A stretch of DNA of 64,000 nt from an uncultured Chloroflexia bacterium (GTDB lineage: Bacteria; Chloroflexota; Anaerolineae; Anaerolineales; UBA4823), in the NCBI GenBank assembly GCA_963698765.1, contig CAVOSB010000035.1:48497-112496 (forward strand), given 5' to 3'. The notes beneath the pieces are model-generated. The model was not told the DNA's origin, made no database searches, and worked only from the letters and a program-made list of their open reading frames with translations. A program made the translations under genes and the position numbers. Of this stretch, positions 8,990 through 52,716 are shown in pieces. Each line of letters opens with the position of its first letter. Position 1 is the stretch's first letter.

Positions 8990-8992
8990 ACC

Positions 8993-24876: not shown

Positions 24877-27425
24877 GTGAAGCCCCGTATTTTGATCCTT
24901 GGCCTGCTCTTAACAATCCTGGCCTGCCAGGTGATTCCCACTCCCCCGGCGCTGCTTAATTCAACCCGGGTCGGTGCTACGCCGCAGGCTGATCCAGTAA
25001 CTGGCTCTCTTGAGACACCTACCCCCCTGCCCGCTATCACCTCCACGCCAGACGACGTTCAGAAAATCATAACACCGGGAGAATTACCCCCCTTTCCCGT
25101 TTCTCTGTATGGTACTCAACCTGCCAGTCTCCCGGACCTGAGGATTCCTGCCTCTATCCAGGATCCAGCCTTCAATTTACCTGTCTCACTCGAGAACATC
25201 TCAAACCTGGAAGTAGCCGACGGTTTGACAAACAGCCAGCGTGCCACGCTGGGGCAGAATGGTTTCCTGGTGATCCGCACTGCTGATGCCCAATTCAGTG
25301 ACATCCGGAACCGGGTTTCGCTTTACAGGGGACAGCCGTACTTCCTTACCAGCGATGCGGCGGTATACGCCTTCCACCTCTCATTCAGTGAGCTGTGGGA
25401 AGCGCTTGAGAAGGAATACCTTCACCCCAGGCTTACAGAGGCCACCCGCCTTGTTCTCAACGAAGTGCTGTCTTACCTGCCAGTCATCCGTGATGAAAGC
25501 CTGCTCAAGGATGCACGCCTGGCTGCCGCATACCTCGCGGTTGGCTTGCGCCTGCTCGATCCGCAGTCGCAGCCTGTCCTCGATCCTGAAATCTCCAGAC
25601 AGGTACAGCTGCAGATCGACCAGGTCATGTTTGCTCAGGATATCCAGCTGCCGGTATTGATGCCGTATTTCGCAGAAGACTTCTCCGCGTTCCATCCAGT
25701 CGGTCATTATTTCAATGACCCCGCATTGGAGGACTACTACCGCGGGCTGACCTGGTTCCGCCGAATTGGCTTCAAATTATCAGACCGTGATCCGCGCTTT
25801 TTGCCATCCAAAGCGCCGTTAATTATCACCATGGCCCTTAGGCGAGCCAGTTCCGGCGATGGACCGGCGGTGCAGGATTGGGCTGTGGTAAATGACACGC
25901 TGGCTTTTCTGTTCGGATCGGGCGACGATTTCGGGCCGCGCGCAGTATGCCATGATGATGGATCAGGTGTATGGCTCCAGGCTGTCAATTCTGGGTATCT
26001 CGGATGAGCTCACCTGGCTTAACTTCCAGGGTCTCAACCAGGCGCTTCCTTATTCCCCCGCAGAACTCCCTTTCAGCCCCTTATTATTGGACCTGAAAAG
26101 AAATCGCGCCTGGAAGTTCATCGGCAGTCGTTTCACGGTAGATGAAATCATTTTGCAGTCGCTTATTTTAGACCGGGTTGGATCACCAGCCAGCCCGCCT
26201 CAGTTTCCCAGCGGACTTGATTTAATGGCTGCATTTGGTTCACCCGCGGCCGTCGAAGCGCTCGAAAATTCGGGAGCCATGGATGCGGAGGGTTTCCAGC
26301 CCCAGTTGGCAAGAATCCAAACAGCTGTACAGAACCAATCCGAGACGCACTGGAATTCAAGTGTATTTGATGCCTGGCTGCACACCTTATCGGCTCAGTT
26401 GGCAGCCAAAAGCGGTGGATTTCCGCATTTCATGCAAAACCTGGCCTGGGATTACAAGGAGCTGAACACAGCCTTGGGGAGTTGGCTCGCGCAGCTGCAT
26501 GGCGCTGCCGTCATCTCCAGGGAGCCGGAGATCGCCAGCCGCCAGGAACTCCCGGTTTCTCCGCCTGCACCGGCATTTGTCGAACCTAATCCTGCATTCT
26601 TCTACCAGCTGGCAAACCGCAGCGAGTGGATCGTAGAGACTCTACAATCAGCCGGCATGGTAGGAGCAGGCCCCGATATACCATTTGGCCTATCCAGCAG
26701 CTACGCCAGCCTGCTGGACCTGGGGGAACAATTTCGCAAACTGGGGGGAATTGCTCGAAAAGGAGTTGCAGGGAACACCTTTGGATGCGGAAGATTACCG
26801 CATTATCCAGTCACCTCTCGGCCCGGTCGAGGGACGCGCCTTATCCGGGCTGGTTCCCGGCCAGCAGGTCGTCTCCCAACCGCAGGAGCTGCCAGCCATT
26901 CCGATGGTCTCCTACATCCAGGCCGATCAAGAAAACAGCCTGCAGGTTGGGATGGGTTTCCTGAACCGCATCTATGTGCTCGTCCCGTTGGAAGGCAGCC
27001 TGCAGATCGCACAGGGTGGTGTATTTTCCTATTATGAATTCCCACTGCCGGACGAGGAGCTTATGACGGATGGGCGCTGGCGCCGAGTTCTACTCAGCAC
27101 GTCCAATTTCAAGCATCCCCCCTGGATGAATGGACTGCTTTCACCGGAAGAAGGCTTCCCGGTGGAGGTGACCGCATTTCGTTCCGGTGATATTTACCGT
27201 ATCACGCTGGAGGGCGGCGACCTTAACGTCCGGGACCAGCCTTCCATCGGATCGACTGTGCTCAGTCAGCTGGCGATAGGGACTTACGTGGAAATCATCG
27301 ACGGCCCGGTCCAGTCACAGGGCTTTACCTGGTGGATGCTAAGAACCGACCTGTCAGGAGAAGACCACACCGAAGGCTGGGCGGTCCAGAATCCCGCCTG
27401 GTACGAGCGCGCTTGGGGTGACTAG
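24877..27425 (+). CDS. Large secreted lipoprotein with C-terminal SH3b-like domain; possibly DUF3160 family (2 frameshifts)
   Basis: A lipobox is present (LGLLLTILAC). The long body is spread over ORFs 24877.., 25892.. and 26685... The C-terminus reads LNVRDQPSIGSTVLSQLAIGTYVEIIDGPVQSQGFTWWML (bacterial SH3). The family assignment is from memory only. Confidence 0.5.
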
Positions 27426-38297: not shown

Positions 38298-41244
38298 ATG
38301 TCCCAAAATATCATTCGCGTCGTCGGGGCGCGTGAACACAACCTTAAAAATATCTCCGTCGACATCCCGCGCGACCAGCTGGTGGTGATCACCGGGTTGT
38401 CTGGCTCGGGAAAATCCTCCCTGGCTTTCGACACCATCTTCGCCGAGGGCCAGCGTCGCTACGTCGAATTGCTTTCCGCCTACGCCCGCCAGTTCCTGGG
38501 CCAGATGGACAAGCCCGACGTCGATTACATCGAAGGGCTCTCCCCTGCCGTATCCATCGACCAGAAGGGGACCTCGCACAATCCACGCTCCACCGTCGGC
38601 ACGGTAACCGAGATTTATGATTACCTGCGCCTGCTCTTCGCCCGGGCTGGCATCCCGCACTGCCCCGAATGCGGTCGCCAGGTCGCCCGGCAGTCCGCGC
38701 AGGAAATTGTGGATGCAGTCGAAGAGTTGCCGGATGGGGCGCGCATCCTGATCCTGTCACCGCTGGTGCGCGGGCGCAAGGGCACCCACCAGGCCGTGCT
38801 GGAGGAAATCCGCAAAGCCGGCTTCGTGCGCGCACGCGTGGACGGCGCCTTGCACGAGCTGGATGAAGACATCCAGATGGACCGCTATAAAATCCATACC
38901 ATCGAAGCGGTGGTTGACCGTCTTATCGTGCAGCGCCAGGATGATTTTTCCGATTCCCAGTCCTCTCGCTCCCGCCTGACCGATTCGATCGAGACGGCGC
39001 TGAAATTCGGCGACGGCTACCTGACCGTCCACTGGCTCAATTCCCCCCCTCCCCCGACCCCTCTCCCTTGAGGGAGACCTGTCCCGAGGAACGGGGGAGG
39101 GTGAGGGTGAGGGTAAAGACCTGCACTTCTCCGAGCACCTGGCCTGCCCGGAGCATGGCTCGGTGCTGCCGGAAATCGAGCCGCGCACCTTCTCCTTCAA
39201 CACGCCTCACGGCGCCTGCCCGGAGTGCCAGGGACTGGGAGGCAGGCTGGAGATCGATCCCGACCTGCTGATACCCAACCGCGACCAGTCGCTGCGCGAG
39301 GGTGCCATCATCGCCTCCGAATGGCACGGTCCGCGTGAAGAAGGCGGCTACTACTGGCAGGCTCTCGAAGCGGTGGCCAAACACTATAAGATCGACCTGG
39401 ACGCACCGGTGCGGAGCATACCACAGGAAAAGCTGGATTTGATCCTGTACGGCACGGGCAGCGAGAGAGTCACCATCCATTACCGCAACAAGGACGGCCG
39501 CACCGCTTCCTGGCAGCTGTCATTCGAAGGGGTGGTGGGCAACCTGCAGCGCCGCTTCAACGAAACCAGCTCGGAGGCTATACGCGAGCGCATCTCCGAA
39601 TTCATGAGCGAGCAGCAGTGCACCACCTGCCACGGCGCCCGTCTGCGCAAGGAAGCTCTGGCGGTCACCGTGGATGATGCCAATATCGTCCAGGTTACAC
39701 AGTGGCCGGTGGCCAGGACTCTGGAATGGGCCAGGCGCCTCTCCTCCAGCGAAACCCCACTCACCTCGCGCCAGCAGGCCATCGCCGAAAGGGTGCTCAA
39801 GGAAATTCTTTCCCGCCTGGGCTTCCTGGTGGACGTCGGGTTGGATTACCTGACCTTGCAGCGTTCCGCAGCCTCGCTTTCCGGCGGTGAAGCCCAACGC
39901 ATCCGGCTGGCGACGCAGATCGGCTCGCGGCTGATGGGCGTGCTCTACGTGCTGGACGAGCCTTCTATCGGCCTGCACCCGCGCGACAACAACCGTCTGT
40001 TGAACACCCTCAAAGGTCTGCGCGACCTGGGCAATTCCGTCCTGGTGGTCGAGCACGACAGCGAAACCATCCGCACCGCCGACTGGGTCATCGACCTGGG
40101 ACCGCTGGCTGGTGAGCACGGCGGGAGGATCGTAGCCCAGGGCACGGTAGAAGACATCCTGGCTTCGCCCGAATCCCTGACCGGCGGCTATCTCTCCGGC
40201 CGGCTGAAAGTAGACATTCCGCGTGACCGGCGCAATGGAAATGGCAAGCACCTGTCCATCTTCGGCGCACGCCAGAATAATTTGAAGAACATCGACGTGC
40301 GCATCCCGCTGGGAAAATTCGTGTGCATCACGGGCGTCTCCGGTTCGGGCAAGTCCACCCTGATGGTCGAAATCCTGTATAAAGCGCTGGCGCGCGATCT
40401 GAACGGTGCCCACACCCAGCCCGGCGATTACGACCGCATCGCAGGACTGGAATACCTGGATAAGATCATCAATATCGACCAGTCGCCCATCGGGCGCACG
40501 CCGCGTTCCAACCCGGGCACCTACACCGGCCTTTTCGACCACATCCGGGCGCTGTTCGCCGAGCTGCCCGAGAGCAAGGTGCGAGGCTACAAGCCGGGGC
40601 GCTTCTCATTCAACGTGCACGGCGGGCGCTGCGAAGCCTGCCAGGGGCAGGGCCAGCTGCGCATCGAGATGCAGTTCATGCCGGATGTGTACGTGCCCTG
40701 CGATGTTTGCCACGGCGCCCGCTTCAACCGCGAAACACTGCAGGTGAGGTTCAAGGACCTCAATGTCGCAGAAATCCTGGAGCTGACCGTAGACGAAGCC
40801 CTGGTGCTGTTTGCCGCTTTTTCACCCATGCTCAGCCGCCTGCAAACCCTGCAGGACGTCGGCCTGGGTTATATCCGCCTGGGGCAGCCTGCTCCTACTC
40901 TATCGGGCGGCGAAGCCCAGCGCGTCAAGCTGGCGCGCGAGCTGGCCCGCCGCGCCACCGGGCGTACGCTGTATGTGCTGGATGAGCCTTCGGTTGGGCT
41001 GCATGCCGCCGATGTCCACAAGCTGATCGAAGTGCTGCAGCGCCTGGTGGAAGCCGGAAACAGCGTGCTGATCATCGAGCACAACCTGGATATCATCAAG
41101 GTCGCCGATTACCTGATCGACCTGGGACCCGAAGGCGGAGACGGCGGCGGCGAAATCGTGGCCCAGGGCACTCCGGAGGAAGTCTGTGCCTGCGATCCTT
41201 CCTACACCGGGCAGTACCTGCGCCCATTCGTCTGTGACATGTAA
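38298..41244 (+). CDS. uvrA: Excinuclease ABC subunit UvrA, interrupted near 39041-39114 by a palindromic element and a frame change
   Basis: [52 protein letters not shown]...; the zinc module CPECG; downstream [40 protein letters not shown]; [12 protein letters not shown]; [12 protein letters not shown]; CEACQGQG...CDVCHGARF; [12 protein letters not shown]. Confidence 0.96.
39041..39114. repeat. ~74-nt GC-rich nested-hairpin (REP/MITE-like) element inside uvrA
   Basis: ttcccccccTCCCCCGacccCTCTCCCttgaGGGAGAcctgtcccgaggaaCGGGGGAgggtgagggtgagggt. ccctcccccg pairs with cgggggaggg, and there is an inner hairpin tctccc/gggaga. No UvrA-like residues are encoded here. Confidence 0.7.
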
Positions 41245-41434: not shown

Positions 41435-42208
41435 ATGGACGCCCAAAAAATCAAACAAGAAGTACAAAGCCACTACGCCGCCATCGCCCGCCAGGAACAG
41501 GCCCGTCCCGAGGAACGAGGGAACGGCTGCGGTTGTGGCAGTGGTTGCTGTTCCACTGAGTCATCGAACGTGGTCGAGCTGGTGGATTACGGAATCCTGC
41601 AAGGAGACATGGTCAAGGAAGCCGACCTGGGATTGGGCTGCGGATTACCCACGCAGCACGCGGGTTTACAGCCTGGCGAAACCGTTTTAGACCTGGGTTC
41701 CGGAGCTGGCATCGACGTCTTCATCGCGGCCAAAGCTGTCGGCCCATCCGGTCGCGTGATCGGTGTTGACATGACCCCCGAGATGCTGGAACGTGCCCGC
41801 CTCAACGCCGCCAGGAGCAGCTTCAGGAATGTCGAATTCCGCCAGGGTGAGATCGAAGCCCTGCCGGTTGAAGACGGCAGCGTCGATGTGGTGCTATCAA
41901 ACTGCGTGATCAACCTGGTGCCCGACAAGCGCCGGGCATTCGCCGAGATCCACCGCGTGCTCAAACCCGGCGGCCGGTTTTCGATCTCCGACATGGTCAC
42001 CTACGGAGATGTCCCCGCTGAAATGCGCCAGGACATGGAGCTGTGGGCTGGCTGCATCGCCGGCGCAGTGGACCGCCAGGAATATCTGGATTTGATCGCA
42101 GCAGCTGGCTTTGGCGAAATTACGATCCACAGCTCCACCGAATACGAAACCCAAAAGGGAGCCGCATACGGCCTCCTCAGCCTGACATTAGGAGCGCGCA
42201 AGGCATGA
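41435..42208 (+). CDS. arsM: Arsenite S-adenosylmethionine methyltransferase (ArsM-type)
   Basis: It has a Cys-rich N-terminus (GCGCGSGCC), LGLGCGLP, the SAM motif VLDLGSGAGID, VLSNCVINL, and WAGCIAGA. These are the conserved ArsM cysteine contexts. Confidence 0.85.
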   Translation: MDAQKIKQEVQSHYAAIARQEQARPEERGNGCGCGSGCCSTESSNVVELVDYGILQGDMVKEADLGLGCGLPTQHAGLQPGETVLDLGSGAGIDVFIAAKAVGPSGRVIGVDMTPEMLERARLNAARSSFRNVEFRQGEIEALPVEDGSVDVVLSNCVINLVPDKRRAFAEIHRVLKPGGRFSISDMVTYGDVPAEMRQDMELWAGCIAGAVDRQEYLDLIAAAGFGEITIHSSTEYETQKGAAYGLLSLTLGARKA

Positions 42209-42762
42209 CTTCTTCGACGGGTGAGCTGTGGGAGGCATTTAACCGCCAACTCTACAGCTTCATCCGCAAACGAGTGAACGATACGCAGGACGCGGAAGAC
42301 CTCCTGCAGGAGGTCTTCCTACGCGTCCACACCCGCCTGGAGCGCCTGCGCGACCAGGAGCGCGTCGCCCCCTGGCTGTACCAGGTGACGCGCAACGCAA
42401 TTATCGATTATTACCGCGGTAAACGCGACCTGGAACCCCTGCTGGAGCAGCTCCCCGCCATGGACGAGCTAAAAGAGGCAGATCCCGCAGCGGAGATCGC
42501 CTCCAGCCTGGAGGAGATGGTGAGGAGCCTGCCTGACACCTACCGTGAAACCGTGCTGCTGAGCGAATTCCAGGGCAAGAACCACCAGGAGATAGCCGAG
42601 CAGCTCGGCATCACCCTGAGCGGTGTGAAATCGCGCGTTCAGCGTGGGCGGGAGCTGCTGCGCCGTGACTTATGGGAGTGCTGTCACTTCGAGTTCGACC
42701 GGCGCGGCCACCTGATCCATTACGAGCCGCAGCCGGAGTGCTGCCCGGTCTGTAGCTGCTGA
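42205..42762 (+). CDS. ECF-type sigma-70 factor with Cys-rich C-terminal extension (SigZ-like)
   Basis: Region 2 reads DAEDLLQEVFLRVH...APWLYQVTRNAIIDYYR. Region 4 reads YRETVLLSEFQGKNHQEIAEQLGITLSGVKSRVQRGRELL. The extension is WECCHFEFDRRGHLIHYEPQPECCPVCSC. The ATG overlaps the arsM stop (ATGA at 42205-42208). Confidence 0.8.
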   Translation: MTSSTGELWEAFNRQLYSFIRKRVNDTQDAEDLLQEVFLRVHTRLERLRDQERVAPWLYQVTRNAIIDYYRGKRDLEPLLEQLPAMDELKEADPAAEIASSLEEMVRSLPDTYRETVLLSEFQGKNHQEIAEQLGITLSGVKSRVQRGRELLRRDLWECCHFEFDRRGHLIHYEPQPECCPVCSC

Positions 42763-42860: not shown

Positions 42861-43976
42861 ATGAGCCGGTTGCGTGCTGCAATTACCTCCCTGGTGCGCC
42901 GCCCTGGCGCCGAAGACCACCTGCTGCTCATCCTGCTGGCCTTCGCCCTGAGCGTCACCCTGACGCGCCTGCTGCTGTGGCTGACGGGTTATCCCACTTT
43001 CGGCGGTGAAATCTTTCACATCTCACACGTTCTGTGGGGAGGCCTTTTCCTGTTCGCCGCCGCCCTTTTACCCCTGATCTTCGCCAACCAGCGCATCTAC
43101 CGCCTGACTGCCATCCTGGCCGGCCTGGGCGTGGGCCTGTTCATCGACGAAGTAGGGAAATTCATCACCCACAGCTACGATTATTTTTACCCTTTCGCCG
43201 CACCGATCATCTACGCCTTCTTTCTGGCCGGCGTGCTGGTCTACCTGCAGGTCAGCAAGCCTCGCATCCGGAACGCTCGTATCGAGCTGTACGCCGCCGT
43301 GGAATACCTGGAGCAGGTGCTGGAGAGAGACCTCGACCCGCACGAGCGCCGCCTGCTGTCCATGCACCTGGAATCAGCTGCCAGTCAGAATGAGGAACCG
43401 GAGCTGGCCCACCTGGCAAACCTGTTGCTGGGTTTCGTGAACGGCGATGCGATCCTCGAAGTCCCGCCTTCACAAGGCTGGCTGGATAACCTGCAATCCA
43501 GGTTCCAATCCTGGCAGTCCCGGCTGTACGCAAGACCCGCCGCCCTGCCGGGTATGGTTGCCGGGCTTGGGATGCTTGGGCTTTCCAGCTTATCGGCCTC
43601 AATCTGGCTGGTGGTCAGCAATATCCAGATAACAGAGTTCGAGGTGGGCTTTTTCACCCGTCTGAATACCAGCACCGAATACTCCTGGTGGATATTTACC
43701 CTGGCTTTCATCCTGGGGATTACCGGGCTTGGCCTGCTGCTTGGTGCAGGCTGGATATGGCTTGGACGGAAGCGGATGAAGCCTGGTTCTGCACTCCCAC
43801 CTCTAAATTATTCTCGTTATTCGAAGGGGCTGCGCTGGAGCTTCACTTCCCTGGTGCTCCAGCTGACCGTGCTGGATTTGCTGCTCTTCTACTATCTACA
43901 ATTCGGCTCCGCCGTGCTGGTCTTGATCCAGTTTACATTGCTGCTGGCGGTCATCCATTACCAGCGGGCTGCTTAG
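42861..43976 (+). CDS. Polytopic membrane protein, function unknown
   Basis: The 371-aa ORF has about 8 hydrophobic segments. I recognise no family motif. Confidence 0.5.
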   Translation: MSRLRAAITSLVRRPGAEDHLLLILLAFALSVTLTRLLLWLTGYPTFGGEIFHISHVLWGGLFLFAAALLPLIFANQRIYRLTAILAGLGVGLFIDEVGKFITHSYDYFYPFAAPIIYAFFLAGVLVYLQVSKPRIRNARIELYAAVEYLEQVLERDLDPHERRLLSMHLESAASQNEEPELAHLANLLLGFVNGDAILEVPPSQGWLDNLQSRFQSWQSRLYARPAALPGMVAGLGMLGLSSLSASIWLVVSNIQITEFEVGFFTRLNTSTEYSWWIFTLAFILGITGLGLLLGAGWIWLGRKRMKPGSALPPLNYSRYSKGLRWSFTSLVLQLTVLDLLLFYYLQFGSAVLVLIQFTLLLAVIHYQRAA

Positions 43977-43984
43977 CCAGTTTT

Positions 43985-44521
43985 TCACGCCTCCGCGGGT
44001 GCATTATTTATCATCGCTTCCAGCGCAGCCAGGTTTCCGGCACACTGCGTTTCAAGCAGCGGTGCACATTCAGCAATTCGTTTTAGTGAGGCGGCAAGCT
44101 TCAGAGCAAAAGAAAAACAGGTCGGCTCCCCGCACTGCCTGCAGTTAGTATTGGGAAGCAGTTTATAGATCGCCATCGGTGCTGGGCGTTGGCGTGTTGT
44201 GGAATCTGGATTGATTTCGGTTCGCCGTTCCCAGGTCCGATTCACCAGTTCAACTAATCCCTCCAGCTCCTCTTCCGCCTCCTGTCGATCTTCTAGGTTG
44301 CTGGTAGCGATTTCAAGAGCATGGAAAGCGATGTGATGCCCTCCCTGCTTCCAGGTCAGGGCATGGGCTCCGGGGATGTAGATCGCCCCTTGCAGCGTGG
44401 CATTGAGGTAAGGCAGCACTTCGGAAATATCGCTTCTCAGATGCGCACGTGCAGCATAGCGCTCCGCACCCGGGTCGCAGGGCGGGGTAAAAACTTCAAT
44501 GCCGTAATCTTCAATTAACAC
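43985..44521 (-). CDS. Fe-S cluster-binding protein (RnfB/CFeSP-type N-terminal 4Fe-4S motif located near its C-terminus)
   Basis: The 178-aa ORF contains LLPNTNCRQCGEPTCFSFALKLA, matching the LPxxNCxxCGxxTCxxFA motif. Confidence 0.6.
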   Translation of the reverse strand: MLIEDYGIEVFTPPCDPGAERYAARAHLRSDISEVLPYLNATLQGAIYIPGAHALTWKQGGHHIAFHALEIATSNLEDRQEAEEELEGLVELVNRTWERRTEINPDSTTRQRPAPMAIYKLLPNTNCRQCGEPTCFSFALKLAASLKRIAECAPLLETQCAGNLAALEAMINNAPAEA

Positions 44522-44585: not shown

Positions 44586-46157
44586 TCATTTACGCTTCTC
44601 CAGGCAAATCGCGTTTATGGCCGGTCTCAAACTGAAGAGCAGCAGCAGTGTGACGATAATTGCTGAAGCCAGGCACCACAGACACACCGCCTGGATCACG
44701 AACGGTTCCAGGTAAGTCAGGTACAGGGAGAACAGCGTGCCGAACAGCGCCATGCCGGTCACCGCCAGGGCCGCAAAGCCAGAATTGCGGCCGCCCTTCA
44801 ATCGTCCCCACATCCAGGCTGCCAGTATCCCCAGGTAACCAGCCACCCCCAGCAATCCGATCGGAATGAGGCCAAACAGGCGCGCATACGGACTGGACTG
44901 CACCGCGTTGCAGTCGCCCACCGGCCCGCAGACAGCATGCACCAGCTGTGTCTCCACGTAGGACAGGTAACCTGCCACACCCAGGCCGACCAGCGCTAAT
45001 ATTGGGATCGCCCAGGCCTGCCAGGTCGGAACTGGGTGGAAATTCCCGCCCCGCACCACTGCCAGAATCAGCCGGATGATTGAATAAACTAGCGCTACCC
45101 CCATGGCTGCCAGCACTGTAATCGCCAGCACGAAGCCGTCAGGCTTTTGCTCTTTAGCCGGCGTGAACTGCACTTCTACCGCTGTAGGAACAGGTTCAGG
45201 CGTGGCTGTGGCCTGTCCCGGCGGCTCCGGCACTGCCGGGTAATCGATCCCGCCGGCTGCCAGGTAACCTTCAACCAACCCTGGCAGTTCCGCCTCGATC
45301 CGGTCGCCCATCAGCACGTGTTCGCCGATCATGATCATTGGCAGATCCGTCTGCTCGCGCTCGAATCCATGGCTGGCTGCCAGCTCGTAAATGTACTCCA
45401 CCTGCTCGGAGGTGCGGATGTCGATTGAACGGTACTCAAACCGGTCTCCATACTTCTCAATCAAAGGTCTTAATATGACTGCCAGCTCACCCCGGCAGGT
45501 ATGGCAGTCCAGTGTCGTGAACACGACCGCCCGCGCCACCCCGCCTGTAAATACCTGCTCGCTGGTTCCCACTGCAGTCGCCGGTGTCTCCATGGTCTGG
45601 TCCAGCCAGGACGGCCAATCCAGACCTCCTCGGGCCAGGTATTCTTCGATCAAACCGGGCAGCTCGGATTGGATCTGGTCTGACCCGATCAGGGCATACT
45701 CGTCCAGAATTAAAAATGGCACAAAAACCTGGTCCTTCGGCACACCCAGGTTGGCAGCCACACTGACCAGATGTTCATAATCATCCAGGCCGACCACCTC
45801 AATCAATCGAACCTGGAATTGATCCCCATATTTCTCTTGTAAGGGCGGCAGCACATTCTCCAGGACATTATGGCAGCTGGGACAGCCGTTGATCCAGAAC
45901 ATCACGGCCCGCACGACCGGTCCAGTGGGTTCAGGGGTCGTTTCATCTGTAGAAGAGTAATTAATTGTGTGATCACATCCGATGCAAACACTTATAGGAG
46001 CTTCTTCAAGTGATCCTGGATCAGTCGCTGTACTGTCGATTGAAATCGTCGTCTGAATTGCCAAAGGCTGGGCATCAATTTCAGATAACTGGGGCGCTGT
46101 CCGGGTGCAAAATATGGCAGCCAGGCTGAGAGCAGCCATCCAAAGACTGGTGGTCAA
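44586..46157 (-). CDS. Fusion of two thioredoxin-like domains and a VKOR (vitamin K epoxide reductase) membrane domain
   Basis: Trx-like 1 is MFWINGCPSCHNVL. Trx-like 2 is VFTTLDCHTCRGEL. The VKOR domain has the loop cysteines CGPVGDC and the active site CLWC, with 4-5 TM helices. Confidence 0.82.
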   Translation of the reverse strand: MTTSLWMAALSLAAIFCTRTAPQLSEIDAQPLAIQTTISIDSTATDPGSLEEAPISVCIGCDHTINYSSTDETTPEPTGPVVRAVMFWINGCPSCHNVLENVLPPLQEKYGDQFQVRLIEVVGLDDYEHLVSVAANLGVPKDQVFVPFLILDEYALIGSDQIQSELPGLIEEYLARGGLDWPSWLDQTMETPATAVGTSEQVFTGGVARAVVFTTLDCHTCRGELAVILRPLIEKYGDRFEYRSIDIRTSEQVEYIYELAASHGFEREQTDLPMIMIGEHVLMGDRIEAELPGLVEGYLAAGGIDYPAVPEPPGQATATPEPVPTAVEVQFTPAKEQKPDGFVLAITVLAAMGVALVYSIIRLILAVVRGGNFHPVPTWQAWAIPILALVGLGVAGYLSYVETQLVHAVCGPVGDCNAVQSSPYARLFGLIPIGLLGVAGYLGILAAWMWGRLKGGRNSGFAALAVTGMALFGTLFSLYLTYLEPFVIQAVCLWCLASAIIVTLLLLFSLRPAINAICLEKRK

Positions 46158-46260: not shown

Positions 46261-46554
46261 TCACGCTCTCGACTTCTGCCGGGAAAAGAAGGCATCATAC
46301 GCTCGGCGCAAGGCAGATGCATAATCGACCTCGGTTTCCTCTCGCCTGGGAATGTAATTGGATTGCCGAGCCATGCCTATCAGCTCCGTGTCTGTGGCAT
46401 CATCGGGGCAGCGACCCATCGCTACCAATTGCTGGAAAACTTGGTCAAGTCCTCTCATCCCAACTGTACGACCCTGCACTCCGATCTGGAGGTAGGTAAT
46501 GCCATCGACATTGGGAAGACAACAGGCACCGGAATTTGACGGTATTTTGGTCAT
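46261..46554 (-). CDS. Small Cys-Cys domain protein of unknown function (same domain as the C-terminus of the DGC fusion at 47.6-48.0 kb)
   Basis: The 97-aa ORF has an AGGAGG RBS 8 nt upstream. It reads GACCLPNVDGITYLQIGVQGRTVGMRGLDQVFQQL...ELIGMARQSNYIPRREETEVDYASALRRAYDAFF. Confidence 0.55.
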   Translation of the reverse strand: MTKIPSNSGACCLPNVDGITYLQIGVQGRTVGMRGLDQVFQQLVAMGRCPDDATDTELIGMARQSNYIPRREETEVDYASALRRAYDAFFSRQKSRA

Positions 46555-46758
46555 TGCGCTATCCTCCTTTGGTATGAGGGGGAGGATGGATGGTTACTTC
46601 TTCATCAGGCTTTCTAAAGGTGGGTACCCAGCATGCCTCACTGCCAGCTGGTTTGGATACCATATCTTTGATCTCCTGGCTAAAACTTATTCCAACTCCA
46701 AAAAAAATCATACTGGTAAGAATACACTTCTCGAGCCTAAGCTTTTTTCGGGTAAGTA

Positions 46759-47088
46759 TTAATCAATGGCATCCAGGGCATGGACTGCATAGATGGAACC
46801 TGGGCCACCGCCCATCAGCAGTCCGACGCCAACGGTCTCCAGCAGTTCCTGGCGGGTGGCGCCAGCAACAACAGCATCGTGAACGTGGTACACAATGCAG
46901 CCCTCGCAGCCAACTACGATGCTGATCGCCAGTGCCATCATTTCTTTAATCTTGCGGCTCAGCGCCCCGTCTTCTACGCCTTTTTTATGCAGCCGGGCGA
47001 AACCGCTCATCGGTCCAGGGATCTGGCTTCCGAGCTGCGCCAGCCGGTCCTCAAAATACTTGTAAGAATCGTCGAAATCAGTTTTCAT
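46759..47088 (-). CDS. Carboxymuconolactone decarboxylase (AhpD-like) family protein with CxxC
   Basis: The 109-aa ORF reads KEMMALAISIVVGCEGCIVYHV...GATRQELLETVGVGLLMGGGP. Confidence 0.85.
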   Translation of the reverse strand: MKTDFDDSYKYFEDRLAQLGSQIPGPMSGFARLHKKGVEDGALSRKIKEMMALAISIVVGCEGCIVYHVHDAVVAGATRQELLETVGVGLLMGGGPGSIYAVHALDAID

Positions 47089-47183
47089 AAGAATTCAATG
47101 TCGTAAAAGTAAGGCATTCAAGAAACGAATATCACCTCGCCATAAAAATCCTCTGCCCGACAAGTGAAGATCAAACAAGAGAT

Positions 47184-47637
47184 TCAGGCCGTTATTTCAA
47201 TCTGCGGCTCGATGATCACCTCGGATTTCACGGAATTAGCCACCAGGCTGTATTTCTGCGCCGACTGGATCGCCCGCCGGGCGCGGGCTTCGACGACATT
47301 GGGATCTTCGATGGCCGGCGGCGATGCGGATGACAGGCCACAGGCGCAGGTGGGTAAAAATCTCGGTACGATCCAGCTCAATCAGCTTGGTGCCCTCCGC
47401 CCGGCATTCGTATGAGAGCAGGTTGAGCTTGAAGCGTTCGGTGGCCCAGATGAACATCATCATGATGCAGGTGTTGGCGGCGGCTACAAAGGCATCTTCG
47501 GGTGTGAAAACGCCCGGGTGTCCCTGGGCGTCCGGCGGGGCGGAAAAATCCATCTCCGGACCGTTGCCCATAGCGATGTGACCCCAGTGTTCACCTTTCC
47601 AGGTGACGGTGGTGTTGTAAGCTGCGGTGCGGCTCAT
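47184..47637 (-). CDS. OsmC/Ohr-family protein (frameshift near 47350)
   Basis: MSRTAAYNTTVTWKGEHWG...FTPEDAFVAAANTCIMMMF... The tail is restored in ORF 47184..47381 (ARRAIQSAQKYSLVANSVKSEVIIEP). The position where I expected the second (resolving) Cys reads Ser in my translation. Confidence 0.75.
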
Positions 47638-48370
47638 ACAGGGCTCTCCTGCTGATGCAGAAGGCTTCATATTCACGCAGCAAAGCGGCGGAAAAGACTT
47701 CTTCCGCGCCGTTCGGGATGGGGTTATAAATTTTTACCATTTCAAGCAATTCTCTGCCCGGTGCTCATCGGAAGGCATTTTGCCATCCTCTCGCAATTTT
47801 TCGAAATATCAGCGGCAGGGCCATCAACCTGACATTTTCGCCGTCGATCTGAATTTCCTGAATTGGGATACCGGATCCGCAGGAACAGGTGGCTTGTATG
47901 GCATCCGGATGTTCAGCAACCGGCTCAATCGTGATGAATTCGCCGCTGTTCCGGCTCCACCGCTTGTCCAGAAGTTCATCCACCAGGTCTGCCATCCGCA
48001 TTGGCAACGAGGTCGACCGCCAACAGCCCTGCCTGGTCCAACCGGCGGCGACCCTGGGGTTTCTCCATCCCATTCTCTTGCACCAGGTCGGTCACGACCA
48101 GGCTGGCGGCAGGTTTACCGGAGTACATTTCGGTGGCACGGGCTGCACAGCGCTCATCGCAACCGTCCACAGCGATGGTGGGATAAAATCGGGCAAAGGC
48201 GCGATCTCCTTCACCGCCGGCCAGGAAGAGCGGCAGGCAGATGGTCACAGTGTCGTTGGGACGCAGCTGCTCCAGCACTTTCAAGGCAGCCAGGCGAGTT
48301 ACCGTGCCTTCCGCGAGCTCTTCTCCGGAACAGGCCACAATTCCACTTTTTTCTTCGGCAGATCAACCAT
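47600..48370 (-). CDS. DGC-domain protein fused to the Cys-Cys domain (several frameshifts; 3' end uncertain)
   Basis: MVDLPKKK..IVACSGEELAEGTVTRLAALKVL...PTIAVDGCDERCAARATE (the DGC motif). This is followed by ATCSCGSGIPIQEIQIDGENVRLMALPLIF / EKLREDGKMPSDEHRA / LLEMVKIYNPIPNGAEEVFSAALLREYEAFC. The start overlaps the upstream stop (ATGGTTGA). Confidence 0.6.
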
Positions 48371-48759
48371 TCTGGCCTTCCTTGCGGAGCTCATCCACGA
48401 CTTTGGCCGCCTCTTCCGCCAGGGCACGCGCCAGTTGTTCTCCGCCCTCATTGAGCTCGGCGATCCCCTGAGGCTTGAACTGTCGATAGCGACGATAAAC
48501 ATCCAGCACCGCAAAATCTTGGGCCACAACTCCGCCGCTTTCTTGCACCATTTTCGTGGCGCAAGCCAGCTTACAGCCATCAATGGTAATCGCCGGACTG
48601 GCTGCCACTGCCTGGCGAGCGGATCTCATCCCCAAGCACAAGCAGGGATAAGGGTACCAGTTGTGTGGTGTCAGGGCGAAGGTCTTCGGTCAGGTCATAA
48701 GCTGCTTCTCGGCTGACCGTGCCATAGGTCTTGCCGATGCCGCTGCACGGCACGATCAC
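48363..48759 (-). CDS. DGC-domain (putative metal-binding) protein (frameshift near 48625)
   Basis: A GTG start follows a GGAGAG RBS. The sequence reads VIVPCSGIGKTYGTVSREAAYDLTEDLRPD..., then AITIDGCKLACATKMVQESGG. Confidence 0.65.
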
Positions 48760-48793
48760 AACTCTCCTGTGTGGTTATTTCGAGAGTTTTCGC

Positions 48794-49243
48794 TCATAAC
48801 TTTTTCGCCTCTTCTTCGGCCTGCGCTTTCATGCGCACAAAATAAGCCTGAGCGTCGAGCAAGCGAGAGCGGTCGGCAGCCCAATCGGCAGGCTCGATCA
48901 CCGCCAGCCAGCCCTCGCCATAGGGATCCTGGTTGATAGCTTCGGGAGCTTCTTCCATTGCCGGGTTAACCTCAACGATGTTTCCCATCACTGGCGAAGT
49001 GAAAGCAATATTAACTTTGATGGTTTCAATCACTGCCACCTCATCCCCAACAGCGAGTGCCGTTCCGGCCGGTTTGATCTCGGCAAAAGCCACATCACCG
49101 CTGCGCTGCTGCACGAAGTCCGAAAGGCCGATGCGTAGGCGCCCATTTTCCTCTTTAACCCATAAACCCTCGTCGCTGTAATAACGGTCAGTGGCAACCC
49201 GGAAGATGAATTTATCAACGGTGGTTTCTAAATAATCTGTCAC
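48794..49243 (-). CDS. GcvH-like lipoyl-carrier protein
   Basis: The 149-aa ORF reads GLWVKEENGRLRIGLSDFVQQRSGDVAFAEI...VGDEVAVIETIKVNIAFTSPVMGNIVEVN...DPYGEGWL. The Lys in ETIKV aligns with the lipoyl-lysine of the ESVKA motif. No gcvP or gcvT is nearby. Confidence 0.85.
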   Translation of the reverse strand: MTDYLETTVDKFIFRVATDRYYSDEGLWVKEENGRLRIGLSDFVQQRSGDVAFAEIKPAGTALAVGDEVAVIETIKVNIAFTSPVMGNIVEVNPAMEEAPEAINQDPYGEGWLAVIEPADWAADRSRLLDAQAYFVRMKAQAEEEAKKL

Positions 49244-49252
49244 GAAATGCTC

Positions 49253-50404
49253 CTATTTGAATGGTTTTCCAGAATCCGAGCTGGATCCGGCGGCAACGGC
49301 TATTGTAGGTGTGACGATCAACGCATCTTTGAAATAGCGTTTTTGCAGCCTGAAAGCTACATTGACCAGCCCGATCATCACCGGCACTTCCACCAGGGGT
49401 CCAATCACAGCCGCAAAAGCCTCCCCCGAGGAGATGCCGAACACCGCCACCGCGACCGCAATCGCCAGCTCGAAGTTATTGCTGGCGGCGGTGAATGCCA
49501 GGGTGGCTGTTTTGCTGTAGTCTGCCCCAATAGCCCGGCCCATGAAGAAGCTGACCAGGAACATAATCACGAAGTAGAACAGCAGTGGGATGGCGATGCG
49601 CACTACATCAAATGGGATGGTAAGGATCAGCTCGCCTTTCAGGCTGAACATGACCACGATGGTGAACAGCAAGGCAATCAAAGTCAGTGGGCTGATTTTG
49701 GGGATGAAGGTTTTGTAATACCAATCCCGGCCTTTCGCACGGATCAGGATGAAGTGCGTCAGGAAGCCGGCAATGAAGGGAATGCCCAGGTAGATGAAGA
49801 CGCTTTCGGCAATCTGCCGCATGGTGATATCCACCTCGCTGCCCTGCATTCCCAGTCGCGCCGGCAACACGGTGATGAATATATAGGCGTAAACGCTGTA
49901 AAACAGCACCTGGAAGATGCTGTTAAATGCCACCAGTCCGGCCGCGTATTCGCTGTCGCCTTTTGCCAGCTCGTTCCACACGATCACCATGGCAATGCAG
50001 CGCGCCAGCCCGATGAGAATTAATCCGTTCATATATGCCGGATAATCGCTCAAGAAAACCACTGCCAGGATGAACATCAGGATCGGGCCGATCACCCAGT
50101 TCTGAATCAGCGAGAGACCCAACACCTTCCAGTTGCGGAAGACGTCACCCAGCTCCTCGTAATGCACCTTTGCCAGCGGCGGGTACATCATCAGGATCAA
50201 TCCAATGGCGATGGGGATGTTGGTGGTACCAACGGATACCGCCTGGTTGAAGTTTTCCACAGCAGTGGGGAATAGATACCCGATACCCACCCCGATGGCC
50301 ATGGCCAGGAAAATCCAAAGCGTGAGGTAGCGGTCCAGGGTGGAAAGCTGGCGGGAGACGCCTTGGGCTGGTTGTGGGATAGTCTCTGCTTTCGTGCTGG
50401 CCAT
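49253..50404 (-). CDS. acr3: Arsenite efflux permease, ACR3 family
   Basis: The likely start is MASTKAE. The sequence reads [24 protein letters not shown], with the conserved [13 protein letters not shown] Cys motif and about 10 TM helices. Confidence 0.92.
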
Positions 50405-50406
50405 AA

Positions 50407-50661
50407 TTACACCGCTTCCATAGAAGAGTCTGCCAGCCAGGTAGTCACTTCGGCTGGGGTGGGAATGCGACCCGCGCACACCAGCTTTTCATTGATTACC
50501 AGCCCTGGAGTGGACAGAATCGGGTACTGCATAATTTCGCTGTAATCGGTGACCTTTATGAAGTCGGCCTCAATGCCCAGGATCGTCACTGCCTGCCGGG
50601 CGACAGTTTCCACCTTTTTGCAGTTGTCACATCCAGGTCCAAGAACTTTGATAGTAAGCAT
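50407..50661 (-). CDS. Small thioredoxin-fold protein (redox-active disulfide protein 2 type)
   Basis: The 84-aa ORF reads [16 protein letters not shown]...[18 protein letters not shown]. Its stop lies 2 nt before the acr3 start. Confidence 0.8.
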
Positions 50662-50837
50662 GTAAACCTCCGATATTGTAAGATTTGAATTCTTAATTCG
50701 GCATTTATGCCACCAACCTCAATCCGCTGAAGTTGGTATGTGTCTGGTATTTATTTGGAGATTGAGTTTGTTAAACAGATTAAGCGTACCCGCCAGCATG
50801 GCCAGGAAAACAGCCATATTCCCCAGGCCGCCCTGGA

Positions 50838-51296
50838 TCAGCTCCATCGCAATTCCCATGCTACCCAATGTCCTCCAACCGAATTCACAACGAGGAAAAT
50901 CATCCTGTTTGATATCACCGCAGCGATTACCGGCAGGCAATTCGGGCAGGAGCATTCGTTCAGGATCAATTGAGGGGTATTGGCAGCCAGCCCTTCATCG
51001 GATACTCTCGTGATGCGGGCCGCCTGTCGAATCAAGTCCAGCACAGCTGGGTCTGAAAGGCGGTAGAAAATGAAGCGCCCTTCCCGGCGGTCTGTGACTA
51101 CTCCAGCATTGCGCAGGGCGATCAGCTGCTGCGAGATGTACACCTGGCGCTGTACGAGAGCAGCCTCCAGGTGGCAGACGCAGGCTTCGCCCTCTCCGAT
51201 TGCCAGCAGGATTTTCAGCCGCTCGGGCTGGCTGATGGCTTTTAAAAGGCGCGATATTTTGATCGGTGAATTTTCAATCATGGTTGATATATTCAT
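50838..51296 (-). CDS. arsR: ArsR/SmtB-family metalloregulator (C-terminus uncertain)
   Basis: LKAISQPERLKILLAIGEGEACVCHLEAAL...ISQQLIALRNAGVVTDRREGRFIFYRL (HTH plus a CVC site), with an additional CSCPNC near the C-terminus. Beyond about 50950 two frames are both open. Confidence 0.8.
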   Translation of the reverse strand: MNISTMIENSPIKISRLLKAISQPERLKILLAIGEGEACVCHLEAALVQRQVYISQQLIALRNAGVVTDRREGRFIFYRLSDPAVLDLIRQAARITRVSDEGLAANTPQLILNECSCPNCLPVIAAVISNRMIFLVVNSVGGHWVAWELRWS

Positions 51297-51392
51297 TAAG
51301 TGAAATATTCAGTATTTTGAATATATTATCCTCACTTCTCTTCCTGGTCTAGTGACAAATGTCACATAGTTGATCCTGACAGAATTCAGCGC

Positions 51393-51438
51393 TTGACAAA
51401 TCCTCAATACCGCGTTATTATATCAATATATATTGATA
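51393..51438 (+). promoter_or_regulatory. Promoter plus 18-bp perfect palindrome (candidate ArsR operator) in the divergent ars intergenic region
   Basis: TTGACA (51393-51398), a 17-nt spacer, then TATTAT (51416-51421). This is followed by TATCAATATATATTGATA (51421-51438), which overlaps the -10 and the start site. Confidence 0.5.
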
Positions 51439-51469
51439 CAATATAGCTTGATATGTTTCAAGGTTCCAG

Positions 51470-52267
51470 ATGATGACTTTAGCCAATTCTCCTCGCTTCT
51501 TACAGCTCCTGGCGCATGACCTGCGCTGGCAGATGCTCCAGGCGCTTTCCCACAGCGACCTGCGCGTCCAGGAGCTGGCCTCCATTACCCGGCAGCCCCA
51601 GAACCTGGTTTCCTACCACCTCGCCAGGCTGCTGCAGGCCGGACTCCTCCGCGAGCACCGCAGCATCGCCGATGGCCGGGAAGTGTACTACTCCCTGGAT
51701 ATCACCCACTTAGAGCATTTATTTCTGGCCAGCGGCAGGGCACTGCATCCCTCCTTGGGAGCAACCCGGGGCGTGTCAGACGTGCCTCCCCCAACCGGAC
51801 CTCTGCGGGTGCTTTTCCTGTGCACCCACAACAGCGCCCGCTCGCAGATGGCGGAAGGCCTGATGAACCGCCGCGGCCAGGGTTGGGTTAAGGCCAGCAG
51901 CGCCGGCTTCGAGCCCACCCAGGTTCACCCGCTTACTATCCAGGTGATGGATGAGTTGGGCCTCGACACAGCTGAGCATTACGCCAAGCCGCTGGCACTC
52001 TACCAGGGTCAGGAATTCGACGCCCTGGTGACGGTCTGTGACCGCTCCCGGCCGGCCGCCTCTGCTTTCCTCTCTGCCCGCGACCGGCTGCATTGGAGCC
52101 TGGCCGATCCGGTCGAGGCACAGGGCGGGCACGACCAGCAGCTGGCGCTGTTCAGGTCTGTCGCCGCCGAGCTGGATTCCCGGATCGATCACCTGCTGGC
52201 ACGCTTGCGTTTCGAGCACGCCGGTAACCCCCCTCATCAAAATTACAACCCTCAGGAGAAATTGTGA
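51470..52267 (+). CDS. ArsR-type HTH fused to an LMW-PTP/ArsC-like domain
   Basis: The N-terminus reads LRWQMLQALSHSDLRVQELASITRQPQNLVSYHLARLLQAGLL. The C-terminus reads LRVLFLCTHNSARSQMAEG (a CX5R P-loop) ...LVTVCDRSRPAASAF. Confidence 0.8.
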   Translation: MMTLANSPRFLQLLAHDLRWQMLQALSHSDLRVQELASITRQPQNLVSYHLARLLQAGLLREHRSIADGREVYYSLDITHLEHLFLASGRALHPSLGATRGVSDVPPPTGPLRVLFLCTHNSARSQMAEGLMNRRGQGWVKASSAGFEPTQVHPLTIQVMDELGLDTAEHYAKPLALYQGQEFDALVTVCDRSRPAASAFLSARDRLHWSLADPVEAQGGHDQQLALFRSVAAELDSRIDHLLARLRFEHAGNPPHQNYNPQEKL

Positions 52268-52716
52268 GCAAAACCAAAGTCTTATTTCTGTGCACCGGCA
52301 ACTCCTTCCGCAGCCAGATGGCCGAGGCACTGCTGAGAAAACACGCCGGAGAGCGTTTCGAGGTCTTCAGTGCCGGGACGCATCCCAAGGGTATTCACCC
52401 TTACACCCGGCAGGTTATGTCTGAGATCGGCGAAGATCTGGAAGGACACTACTCCAAGGATGTCAAAGAATTCCTGGGCAACCACCACTTTGGCTACGTG
52501 ATCACCTTATGCTCGGACGCCGAGCAGAACTGCCCCACGACTTTCCTGGGAGTCAGCCGCCGCCTGCACTGGGGTTTCGACGACCCGGCCGCGATTCAGG
52601 GTGGTGAGGCCGAAAAACTGGAGAAAGGCCGCCAGGTGCGCGACCAGATCGACGCCCGCATCAGGGAATGGATCAGCGATCCTGTGCTCTCAGCCGATGG
52701 TTCCGGAGCATCTTAA
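52264..52716 (+). CDS. arsC: Arsenate reductase, thioredoxin-coupled LMW-PTP type
   Basis: VLFLCTGNSFRSQMAE (P-loop Cys), VITLCSDAEQNCP (the Cys-x6-Cys pair as in the pI258 ArsC Cys82/Cys89), and HWGFDDP. Confidence 0.9.
   Translation: MSKTKVLFLCTGNSFRSQMAEALLRKHAGERFEVFSAGTHPKGIHPYTRQVMSEIGEDLEGHYSKDVKEFLGNHHFGYVITLCSDAEQNCPTTFLGVSRRLHWGFDDPAAIQGGEAEKLEKGRQVRDQIDARIREWISDPVLSADGSGAS

Follow-up and report, generated by a model that had tools for sequence, protein, structure and literature searches.

Why should a protein carrying a dithiol cofactor, of the kind that arsenite classically attacks, be encoded where arsenite would induce its synthesis? This chemical puzzle is raised by a stretch of 64,000 nucleotides (contig CAVOSB010000035.1, positions 48,497 to 112,496), referred to here as the window, which comes from an uncultured Anaerolineae (Chloroflexota) bacterium and includes an arsenic island. 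The ars operon of the island has an ArsR regulator with an As(III)-type cysteine motif (EACVCH) and the arsenite efflux permease ACR3, and within it lie genes for a GcvH-like lipoyl-carrier protein, two proteins of the DGC family (DGC1 and DGC2) and an OsmC/Ohr-like protein. I will argue that these four genes form a conserved unit, and that the chances are about even (a probability of roughly 0.5) that the unit specifies an ArsR-controlled, arsenite-switched redox relay working through the dithiol of a lipoyl protein.

A four-gene unit and its neighbors in Anaerolineae

Genes were called by reading all six frames and listing open reading frames (ORFs), and the products were then searched with Pfam and NCBIfam profiles. 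The part of the array that bears on the question is as follows, beginning with the promoter region and proceeding downstream:

51297-51469, no strand: divergent promoter region with candidate ArsR operators (AT-rich palindromes at 51416-51454 and 51282-51331; 11/12 sigma-70-like site at 51393-51421)
50838-51296, minus strand: arsR (Pfam HTH_5; NCBIfam HTH_metalloreg, 80.8 bits)
50407-50661, minus strand: CxxC thioredoxin-like protein of the Thioredoxin_3 / MTH895-ArsE family, called Trx_3 or ArsE-Trx below (Pfam, 88 bits; TIGR00412, 89.7 bits against a cut-off of 62)
49253-50404, minus strand: acr3, arsenite efflux permease (TIGR00832, 457 bits against a cut-off of 283)
48794-49243, minus strand: GcvH-like lipoyl-carrier protein, 149 aa, GTG start (Pfam GCV_H, 109 bits)
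48363-48797, minus strand: DGC1 (PF08859), frame broken (Pfam DGC)
47634-48370, minus strand: DGC2 (PF08859 plus a C-terminal CxC domain), frame broken, 244 aa in relatives (Pfam DGC)
47184-47637, minus strand: OsmC/Ohr-like protein, frame broken, 150 aa in relatives (Pfam OsmC)
46759-47088, minus strand: AhpD-like CMD protein with CxxCxxxH (Pfam CMD, PF02627, 65 bits; TIGR00778, AhpD core domain, 46.8 bits against a cut-off of 27.8)
46261-46554, minus strand: Cys-Cys protein, 97 aa (profile alignment to the C-terminus of DGC2)

The trx gene lies 176 nt from arsR and 2 nt from acr3, and the 9 nt between acr3 and gcvH leave no room for a terminator; no terminator-like site was found between those two genes. 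Start and stop codons overlap at gcvH/DGC1 (ATGA), DGC1/DGC2 (ATGGTTGA) and DGC2/osmC (ATGA). Beyond the core, 95 nt separate osmC from the CMD gene and 204 nt separate the latter from the gene of the Cys-Cys protein. An earlier note on this DNA had proposed this set of genes, in this order and on the minus strand. Every gene it named is found where it was placed, the measured gaps and overlaps agree with the junctions it described, and the families it assigned are recovered by Pfam and NCBIfam (HTH_5/ArsR, Thioredoxin_3, GCV_H, DGC twice, OsmC and CMD) and, for ACR3, by TIGR00832. The same note counted ten genes from trx to osmC. There are really six, and ten is about the number of ORF fragments, since DGC1, DGC2 and osmC are each broken up by insertions or deletions (indels) that are taken up below.

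How general is the arrangement? A pattern scan with an alignment of DGC2 proteins, over one genome per GTDB species, gave at least 565 confirmed matches of the DGC2 type, and the best 80 of these were used to compare loci; other homologue searches likewise gave the best 80 to 120 matches, all of them close relatives. The best 80 loci all belong to Chloroflexota of the class Anaerolineae, spread over the lineages Anaerolineales, Promineifilaceae, Ardenticatenaceae, Thermoflexales and Aggregatilineales. When 23 query proteins were mapped onto the loci by tblastn, the order GcvH-DGC1-DGC2-OsmC, with overlapping start and stop codons, proved essentially invariant in about 80 species genomes. DGC1 was present in 80 of 80 testable loci, OsmC in 77 of 77 and GcvH in 75 of 77, an outcome that answers the conservation test proposed in the earlier note, and the unit appears on metagenome contigs as well. 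Recurrence across some 80 species-level genomes is more than chance. A tblastn search with DGC2 of 72,556 plasmids found no match.

The neighbors of the unit are less constant, as judged from the 50 loci with enough flanking sequence to be tallied over 5 kb. Trx_3 is near the unit in 49 of these and ArsR in 44, followed by ACR3 (24), a 178-aa Fe-S protein (22), CMD (15), ArsC (14) and a radical SAM/SPASM protein (10). An arsenic-specific gene (ACR3, ArsC, ArsP, ArsM, ArsD or ArsA) lies within the same distance in 31 of 49 loci, and either such a gene or ArsR in 46 of 49. Directly upstream of gcvH the tally has ArsR 22 times, Trx_3 12 times and dihydrolipoyl dehydrogenase (Lpd) 7 times, and the commonest gene directly downstream of osmC is Trx_3 (39 loci). 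The core is thus gcvH, DGC1, DGC2 and osmC together with Trx_3. ACR3 and the AhpD-like CMD protein, which had been taken for integral parts of the operon, must be ranked as accessories because only 24 and 15 of the 50 loci have them. A separate observation is that Trx_3/ArsE stands directly upstream of ACR3 in 18 of the 33 ACR3 genes seen (loci L003 to L082), which suggests that the small thioredoxin may be functionally paired with arsenic permeases.

The ArsR of the window has, besides its GEACVCH motif of the As(III)-type CVC class, a C-terminal CSCPNC. ArsR genes near the unit in other loci have GE(A/Q)CVCH(L/M)E in the DNA-binding region, at the position of the As(III) site ELCVCDL in the ArsR of R773, and a C-terminal CxCPxC, which is not known to occur in characterised ArsR proteins. 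The CxC motif is present in 68 of the 71 ArsR matches examined. The regulators beside the unit (in the window and in loci L003 to L082) may be described as a subgroup with two cysteine motifs, CVC(H) and CxCPxC. In the divergent promoter region of the window, the AT-rich palindromes overlap the sigma-70-like site, both being matches to a consensus or a repeat, and scans for terminators and promoters did not rise above shuffled background. From the regulator's motif and position it can be inferred, on good grounds, that a CVC-type ArsR controls the unit and that As(III) switches it on. A related case is on record: a DGC gene lies in the ArsR-ArsP-ArsE-DGC operon of Pseudodesulfovibrio mercurii ND132, and that operon, through its ArsE and ArsP homologues, is listed as differentially expressed with arsenic (bioRxiv 10.1101/2022.10.17.512643).

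A proposed lipoyl relay and the alternatives to it

The GcvH-like protein aligns over its full length with GcvH of T. thermophilus (1onl, E 2e-26), with the lipoyl lysine in register. Its ETIKV motif, rightly described in the earlier note as intact, places ETIK on the ESVK of the solved GcvH structures 1onl and 3a8i, and the lysine is kept in 71 orthologues. The protein has a C-terminal extension of about 20 aa and falls below both NCBIfam equivalog cut-offs for GcvH (TIGR00527 and NF002270; 94.8 bits against 115.85 and 111.8 against 117). Its homologues number in the thousands; the best 120 are all at least 77% identical to it, and one of them is named from an Anaerolinea metagenome-assembled genome (MAG). 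A look-up of the window's own protein gave no database record.

The usual partners of GcvH were sought in the window and in some 85 loci (1.37 Mb) by tblastn, with E. coli GcvP, GcvT, Lpd, LipA, LipB and LplA as queries. None of the six has a homologue in the 64-kb window, where gcvP, gcvT and lpd had already been reported missing, and GcvT, LipA, LipB and LplA have none across the loci. GcvP turned up in a single locus, from an Ardenticatenaceae MAG (L031, 2742-5626), in which gcvPA and gcvPB directly follow osmC and lie between it and Trx_3, without gcvT. This locus leaves room for some link to glycine cleavage and hints at an origin of the unit inside a glycine-cleavage operon, or at an ability to fuse with one.

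Lpd is another matter. In eight loci (L019, L039, L045, L066, L069, L074, L078 and L080) a homologue of Lpd ends 5-40 nt upstream of gcvH, so that Lpd, a putative lipoyl H-protein and an OsmC-family protein occur together. Two of these Lpd proteins pass TIGR01350 (493 and 511 bits against 408.8), with the MerA profile below its cut-off, and the one from L069 has both the disulfide motif CLNVGCIPTK and the motif HAHPTLPE. An operon of the order lpd-gcvH-DGC1-DGC2-osmC is otherwise hard to explain, and it argues that the GcvH-like protein probably carries a lipoyl group that is redox-cycled.

The OsmC-like protein is the most conserved member of the unit. Its peroxidatic-type cysteine (NTC) is invariant and aligns with the conserved cysteine of 2onf and 2d7v; ten residues before it stands a glutamate (PED), with TPEDAFVAAANTC invariant, and by reading the sequence the spacing is that of Glu51 and Cys61 in Xylella Ohr. 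An additional invariant cysteine (YEC) follows about 21 residues after the peroxidatic-type one. PMC5384416 gives a pair of cysteines as the hallmark of Ohr and OsmC proteins and describes a poorly characterised third group, called 'Ohr-like', that includes TvOsmC, whose activity is thought to require L and H proteins. By the criteria set out there, the residues of the OsmC-like protein assign it to this third group.

The DGC proteins score 55.6 and 59.9 bits, against a Pfam gathering cut-off of 27. DGC1 and DGC2 share an invariant CSG-x5-G-x3-R after strand 1, a DGC-x3-C motif and a PQG...LN..G motif. Intact DGC2 is a two-domain protein of 244 aa, very highly conserved, with four invariant cysteines and a CSC in its C-terminal domain, and DGC1 has three invariant cysteines, the second being replaced. 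An AlphaFold (AF2) model of DGC1 (pLDDT 90.7, pTM 0.85) is a flavodoxin-like alpha/beta sandwich. The model of DGC2 (pLDDT 67), in which the cysteine-bearing loops are among the low-confidence parts, matched nothing more specific in a Foldseek search of the PDB than generic flavodoxin-like or lumazine-synthase proteins, with E no lower than 0.005, and a DGC2 profile found nothing among PDB sequences. The idea that DGC1 has a DsrE-like or LMW-PTP/ArsC fold was considered and is unsupported: TT1001, presumably a low-molecular-weight phosphatase, ranked only 36th, with a TM-score of 0.37.

The small Cys-Cys protein, present as the earlier note had it, can be further identified as a paralogue, encoded on its own, of the DGC2 C-terminal domain (hhalign probability 98.7%, E 4e-16). 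It has no match in Pfam or NCBIfam, and BLASTP against the truncated DGC2 fragment of the window finds nothing, the kinship being visible only with profiles of intact sequences. The family is rare, with 95 cluster representatives among 1.84 billion proteins. Together with the C-terminus of DGC2 it defines a small domain, outside Pfam and NCBIfam, composed of a cysteine pair, a beta-hairpin and three helices.

How might these proteins work together? The reading that I favor is the lipoyl relay, because of the logic of the operon, the precedent of the L/H/OsmC chain of Trichomonas and the known lipoyl dependence of Ohr and AhpD. Electrons from NAD(P)H would first be transferred by dihydrolipoyl dehydrogenase to the lipoyl group of the GcvH-like protein; the gene of this enzyme may lie elsewhere in this genome, and in some relatives it stands directly ahead of gcvH. 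From the reduced arm the electrons would go on to the unit's cysteine proteins. The first of these to receive them would probably be the OsmC/Ohr-like protein, which would serve as a thiol peroxidase or a reductase and use the arm as its resolving thiol; ArsE-Trx and the AhpD-like CMD protein may be accessory recipients. DGC1 and DGC2 would be obligatory partners with cysteine sites, whether as adaptors or as subunits that bind a metal or metalloid. Shown directly are the content and order of the genes, their conservation, the families of their products, the motifs of the regulator and the lpd gene next to gcvH in relatives; inferred are the lipoylation, the path of the electrons, the induction by arsenite and the nature of the substrate (peroxide or an arsenic-thiol species).

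Several observations weigh against the relay. At the canonical position of the resolving cysteine, about 60 residues downstream, the OsmC-like protein has a serine (QKYSLVANS) in 72 of 72 orthologues, and inspection of the consensus finds no catalytic arginine in loop 1 (as in Ohr) or loop 3 (as in OsmC), so that its peroxidase activity is uncertain. An lpd gene is adjacent in only about 10% of loci, the window not among them. The need for two obligatory DGC proteins is left unexplained. A search of the PDB with the model of DGC1 gave no significant match (best E 0.014, TM-score at most 0.47). Finally, As(III) binds dihydrolipoyl groups, and dihydrolipoamide is its classical target, so a lipoyl antioxidant chain would be inhibited by its own inducer. 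The earlier note had proposed such a lipoyl thiol relay, and its proposal is supported in part. What speaks for it now is the conserved unit, the CVC-type ArsR and the lpd beside gcvH in eight loci; what has been lost is the place of ACR3 and CMD in the core and a canonical active site in the OsmC-like protein.

The poisoning of dihydrolipoyl groups by As(III) is also the main argument for the strongest alternative, since a role in binding As(III) would fit it better than an antioxidant chain does. On this alternative, which I consider possible though clearly less so than the relay, the reduced lipoyl arm and the cysteine sites of DGC1, DGC2 and the Cys-Cys protein capture As(III), buffering it or handing it on to ACR3 or ArsP in the manner of a metallochaperone chain, and Lpd merely keeps the arm reduced. 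It would account for an induction by As(III) of an As(III)-sensitive cofactor, and it agrees with the near-constant company of a CVC-type ArsR and the frequent place of the unit beside Trx_3-ACR3. The typical As(III) ligands of ArsR, ArsD and ArsA are S3 sites and vicinal cysteine pairs, and the candidates here are three cysteines that are invariant in DGC1, four and a CxC in DGC2, and a CC in the 97-aa paralogue. That the cysteine-bearing loops of DGC2 are modeled with low confidence is what would be expected of a ligand site. Against it, ACR3 is within 5 kb in fewer than half of the loci (24 of 50), the loci with lpd tend to be without arsenic-specific genes, and the most conserved member, the OsmC-like protein, is given no role. 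Furthermore, Pfam's working idea for the four cysteines of DGC is that they bind zinc, and stoichiometric binding is a weak strategy of resistance. A more ambitious version, equally tentative, would make the four proteins an arsenic-handling machine of anaerobic Chloroflexota not known before. Its dihydrolipoyl arm would physically move As(III), or an arsenical that is methylated or thiolated, from one DGC cysteine site to another or transform it on the way, and would hand it to the efflux permease or protect that permease.

A second alternative makes the unit a supply of reductant. NAD(P)H, Lpd and the lipoyl-GcvH would reduce ArsE-Trx or the AhpD-like protein, bypassing thioredoxin reductase, and these would then either regenerate ArsC or ArsM, where their action depends on thiols, or reduce arsenicals that are pentavalent or thiolated. 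The nearness of Trx_3/ArsE to the unit (49 of 50 loci, directly after osmC in 39) is what one would look for, as is the frequency of ArsC, ArsM and AhpD-like CMD among the neighbors. The CMD protein of the window, whose active-site motif is GCEGCIVYH, weakly matches curated NCBIfam families of ArsM-AhpD fusions and arsenosugar-associated AhpD-like proteins, and in M. tuberculosis a lipoyl protein is known to reduce AhpD (cited in PMC12440151). I nevertheless regard this explanation as unlikely: ArsC, ArsM and CMD are each found in a minority of loci, and the invariant DGC1, DGC2 and OsmC would not be needed. The data do not separate the relay, the capture of As(III) and the supply of reductant.

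Interrupted frames and flanking genes

The argument so far has treated DGC1, DGC2 and osmC as functional genes, as did the earlier note, which overlooked that all three of their frames are interrupted. No intact ORF for any of them exists in the window. Mapped against the intact relative L001, a JGI metagenome contig (with intact DGC2 at 8874-9608), nine single-base indels break the frames across 1.46 kb: two in DGC1 (one base lost near 48768, one gained near 48623), six in DGC2 (near 48344, 48000, 47807, 47765, 47761 and 47658) and one in osmC (near 47310).

Are the three genes then decaying pseudogenes, with real frameshifts and an operon that does not function in this genome? The indels are denser than those in the other genes that are split in the window, which is the point in favor of this explanation. 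Everything else makes it most unlikely. Once the indels are removed, no in-frame stops are left, and the ratios of nonsynonymous to synonymous substitution rates (dN/dS) against L001, 0.107 for DGC1, 0.165 for DGC2 and 0.092 for osmC, are like those of the intact genes gcvH (0.086) and acr3 (0.099). A contig assembled from short reads (Logan; L092), 96% identical over 48200-49100 and covering DGC1 and the start of DGC2, is free of all three indels within its coverage, its genes being intact. The DGC1 orthologue taken from it (P0246) is 95% identical to the repaired DGC1 of the window. Other genes of the window are likewise split across frames, RNase J into its MBL and beta-CASP parts (17632-19039), DUF3160 into three pieces (24877-27425) and uvrA into two (38298-41244), and indel errors are therefore frequent in the assembly. 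Sibling MAGs, many of which have 'MFD' isolate names and are, I believe, nanopore-derived Microflora Danica bins, show comparable splits in gcvH, osmC, acr3, arsA and a DNA polymerase gene. Because of the lack of in-frame stops and the low dN/dS, the clean short-read contig, the split housekeeping genes and the split genes of siblings, I read the nine indels as almost certainly errors of long-read consensus and not gene decay. Such errors can conceal operons of this kind from gene callers.

The remaining explanation, that the GcvH-like gene encodes an ordinary H protein of glycine cleavage or a lipoyl-relay GcvH of cofactor assembly and that its position among ars genes is functionally meaningless, is the least credible of all: it can point to the full-length likeness to GcvH (35-39% identity to that of E. 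coli, besides the match to 1onl) and to gcvPA/gcvPB in L031, but the protein misses both NCBIfam cut-offs, its gene overlaps that of DGC1 translationally and is linked to DGC1-DGC2-OsmC in 75 of 77 loci, and among the approximately 85 loci gcvT is never found and gcvP once.

The array extends further than the earlier note supposed, running on to a VKOR-thioredoxin fusion and an Fe-S protein, with arsM nearby; the divergent arsR-arsC fusion and arsC that it placed on the other side of the promoter are upheld by NCBIfam. The flanking features are:

51470-52267, plus strand: ArsR-ArsC (LMW-PTP type) fusion, divergent (NCBIfam)
52264-52716, plus strand: arsC, arsenate reductase of the thioredoxin-coupled family (TIGR02691, 118 bits, below its cut-off of 174; the best family match)
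44586-46157, minus strand: membrane protein with a VKOR domain fused to two thioredoxin-like domains (NCBIfam VKOR families, below cut-off)
43985-44521, minus strand: protein of 178 aa whose C-terminus has an Fe-S motif of the PF04060 type, CRQCGEPTC (in NCBIfam, similarity to the N-terminal part of the ACDS gamma subunit; homologues are annotated with PF04060)
41435-42208, plus strand: arsM, arsenite methyltransferase, lying 5 kb away from the cluster (325 bits with NF008823, cut-off 263)

The VKOR protein (523 aa) is a membrane protein with two thioredoxin-like CxxC domains followed by a C-terminal VKOR domain. Homologues of the fusion recur near the unit (L001/L002, L083, L019, L039 and L074), and the protein is an accessory thiol-oxidoreductase. 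The 178-aa protein has an N-terminal domain of unknown type, and its C-terminal PF04060 motif resembles the N-terminal one of the corrinoid Fe-S protein / ACDS gamma subunit. Its homologues are often duplicated and lie beside XdhC-like genes (L083, L085). After arsM come an ORF for an ECF-type sigma factor (42043-42762) and a 371-aa protein (42861-43976) with no family match and no homologue in the related loci. Larger islands around the unit (L001, 10661-16359; L083, 13388-16490) contain additional DGC paralogues, an SBF-like transporter, DUF6951, a Na/H exchanger, a cysteine-desulfurase-like aminotransferase, a P5CR/F420-oxidoreductase-like gene and a radical SAM/SPASM gene whose best family match, below the cut-off, is 'tungsten cofactor oxidoreductase maturase'.

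The unit among known systems

Arsenic cycling matters in anoxic soils, sediments, digesters and aquifers, and these are places where Anaerolineae abound. If the unit is induced by arsenite, then it adds a lipoyl-protein branch to the accessory functions of ars operons and offers a first testable function for the DGC family (PF08859), which is already present in ars operons of sulfate reducers. If instead the arsenic-carrier reading is true, then the family gains its first function together with a metalloid chaperone or reductase based on a cofactor. In the literature searched, neither a GcvH-DGC-DGC-OsmC unit nor a GcvH paralogue within ars clusters is described, the only related report being the preprint on P. 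mercurii.

Several known systems come close. Lpd, H-protein and an OsmC-like protein reduce peroxides in the hydrogenosomes of T. vaginalis (Nyvltova 2016, as cited in PMC5384416, PMC11316075 and PMC12440151). Both systems have an orphan GcvH without P and T proteins, in an anaerobic organism, and an 'Ohr-like' OsmC-family protein without the full catalytic set. With lpd directly upstream of gcvH in eight related loci, the Trichomonas trio is recreated, and the unit may be seen as its bacterial, operon-encoded counterpart. The differences are that here two obligatory DGC proteins are encoded between gcvH and osmC, that the OsmC-like protein has a serine at the position of the resolving cysteine and a new conserved cysteine, and that there is an As(III)-type ArsR and a linkage to acr3, arsC, arsM, arsD and arsA.

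Also close are the Lpd-DlaT-AhpD-AhpC system of M. tuberculosis and the lipoyl-dependent Ohr systems, in all of which a lipoyl arm reduces a CxxC protein of the AhpD type or a protein of the Ohr/OsmC family (the lipoyl dependence of Ohr and the reduction of AhpD by a lipoyl protein are cited in PMC12440151). The window shares with the former an AhpD-like CMD protein with CxxCxxxH. Unlike it, the carrier here is a dedicated GcvH paralogue and not an E2 subunit, AhpC is absent, CMD is found in only about 30% of loci, and regulation would be by arsenic.

The operon of P. mercurii ND132 (ArsR-ArsP-ArsE(PF13192)-DGC(PF08859)) is headed by ArsR, is arsenic-responsive there, and like the unit combines a DGC protein with a thioredoxin of the ArsE type. 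It differs in having a single DGC, neither GcvH nor OsmC, and ArsP as permease in place of ACR3. GcvH-like carriers in roles other than glycine metabolism, encoded with their partners, are known from the sHdr-LbpA system of sulfur oxidation and from GcvH-L of S. aureus (PMC10332631; PMC12440151), and the present protein would be another GcvH paralogue working outside glycine cleavage. Its partners are DGC and OsmC-like proteins, and the genes for Hdr-like proteins, DsrE, TusA, a dedicated lipoate ligase, a macrodomain or a sirtuin are missing here. For the capture of As(III), the conceptual analogy is the hand-off from ArsD to ArsA, in which small cysteine-rich proteins with vicinal cysteines likewise stand beside an arsenite pump; there is no relationship in sequence or fold, and several of the islands have ArsD and ArsA in their own right. 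In sum, ars islands with redox accessories and lipoyl-dependent Ohr/OsmC chains were known before. What appears to be new is the arsenic-linked GcvH-DGC1-DGC2-OsmC unit, widespread in one class of bacteria.

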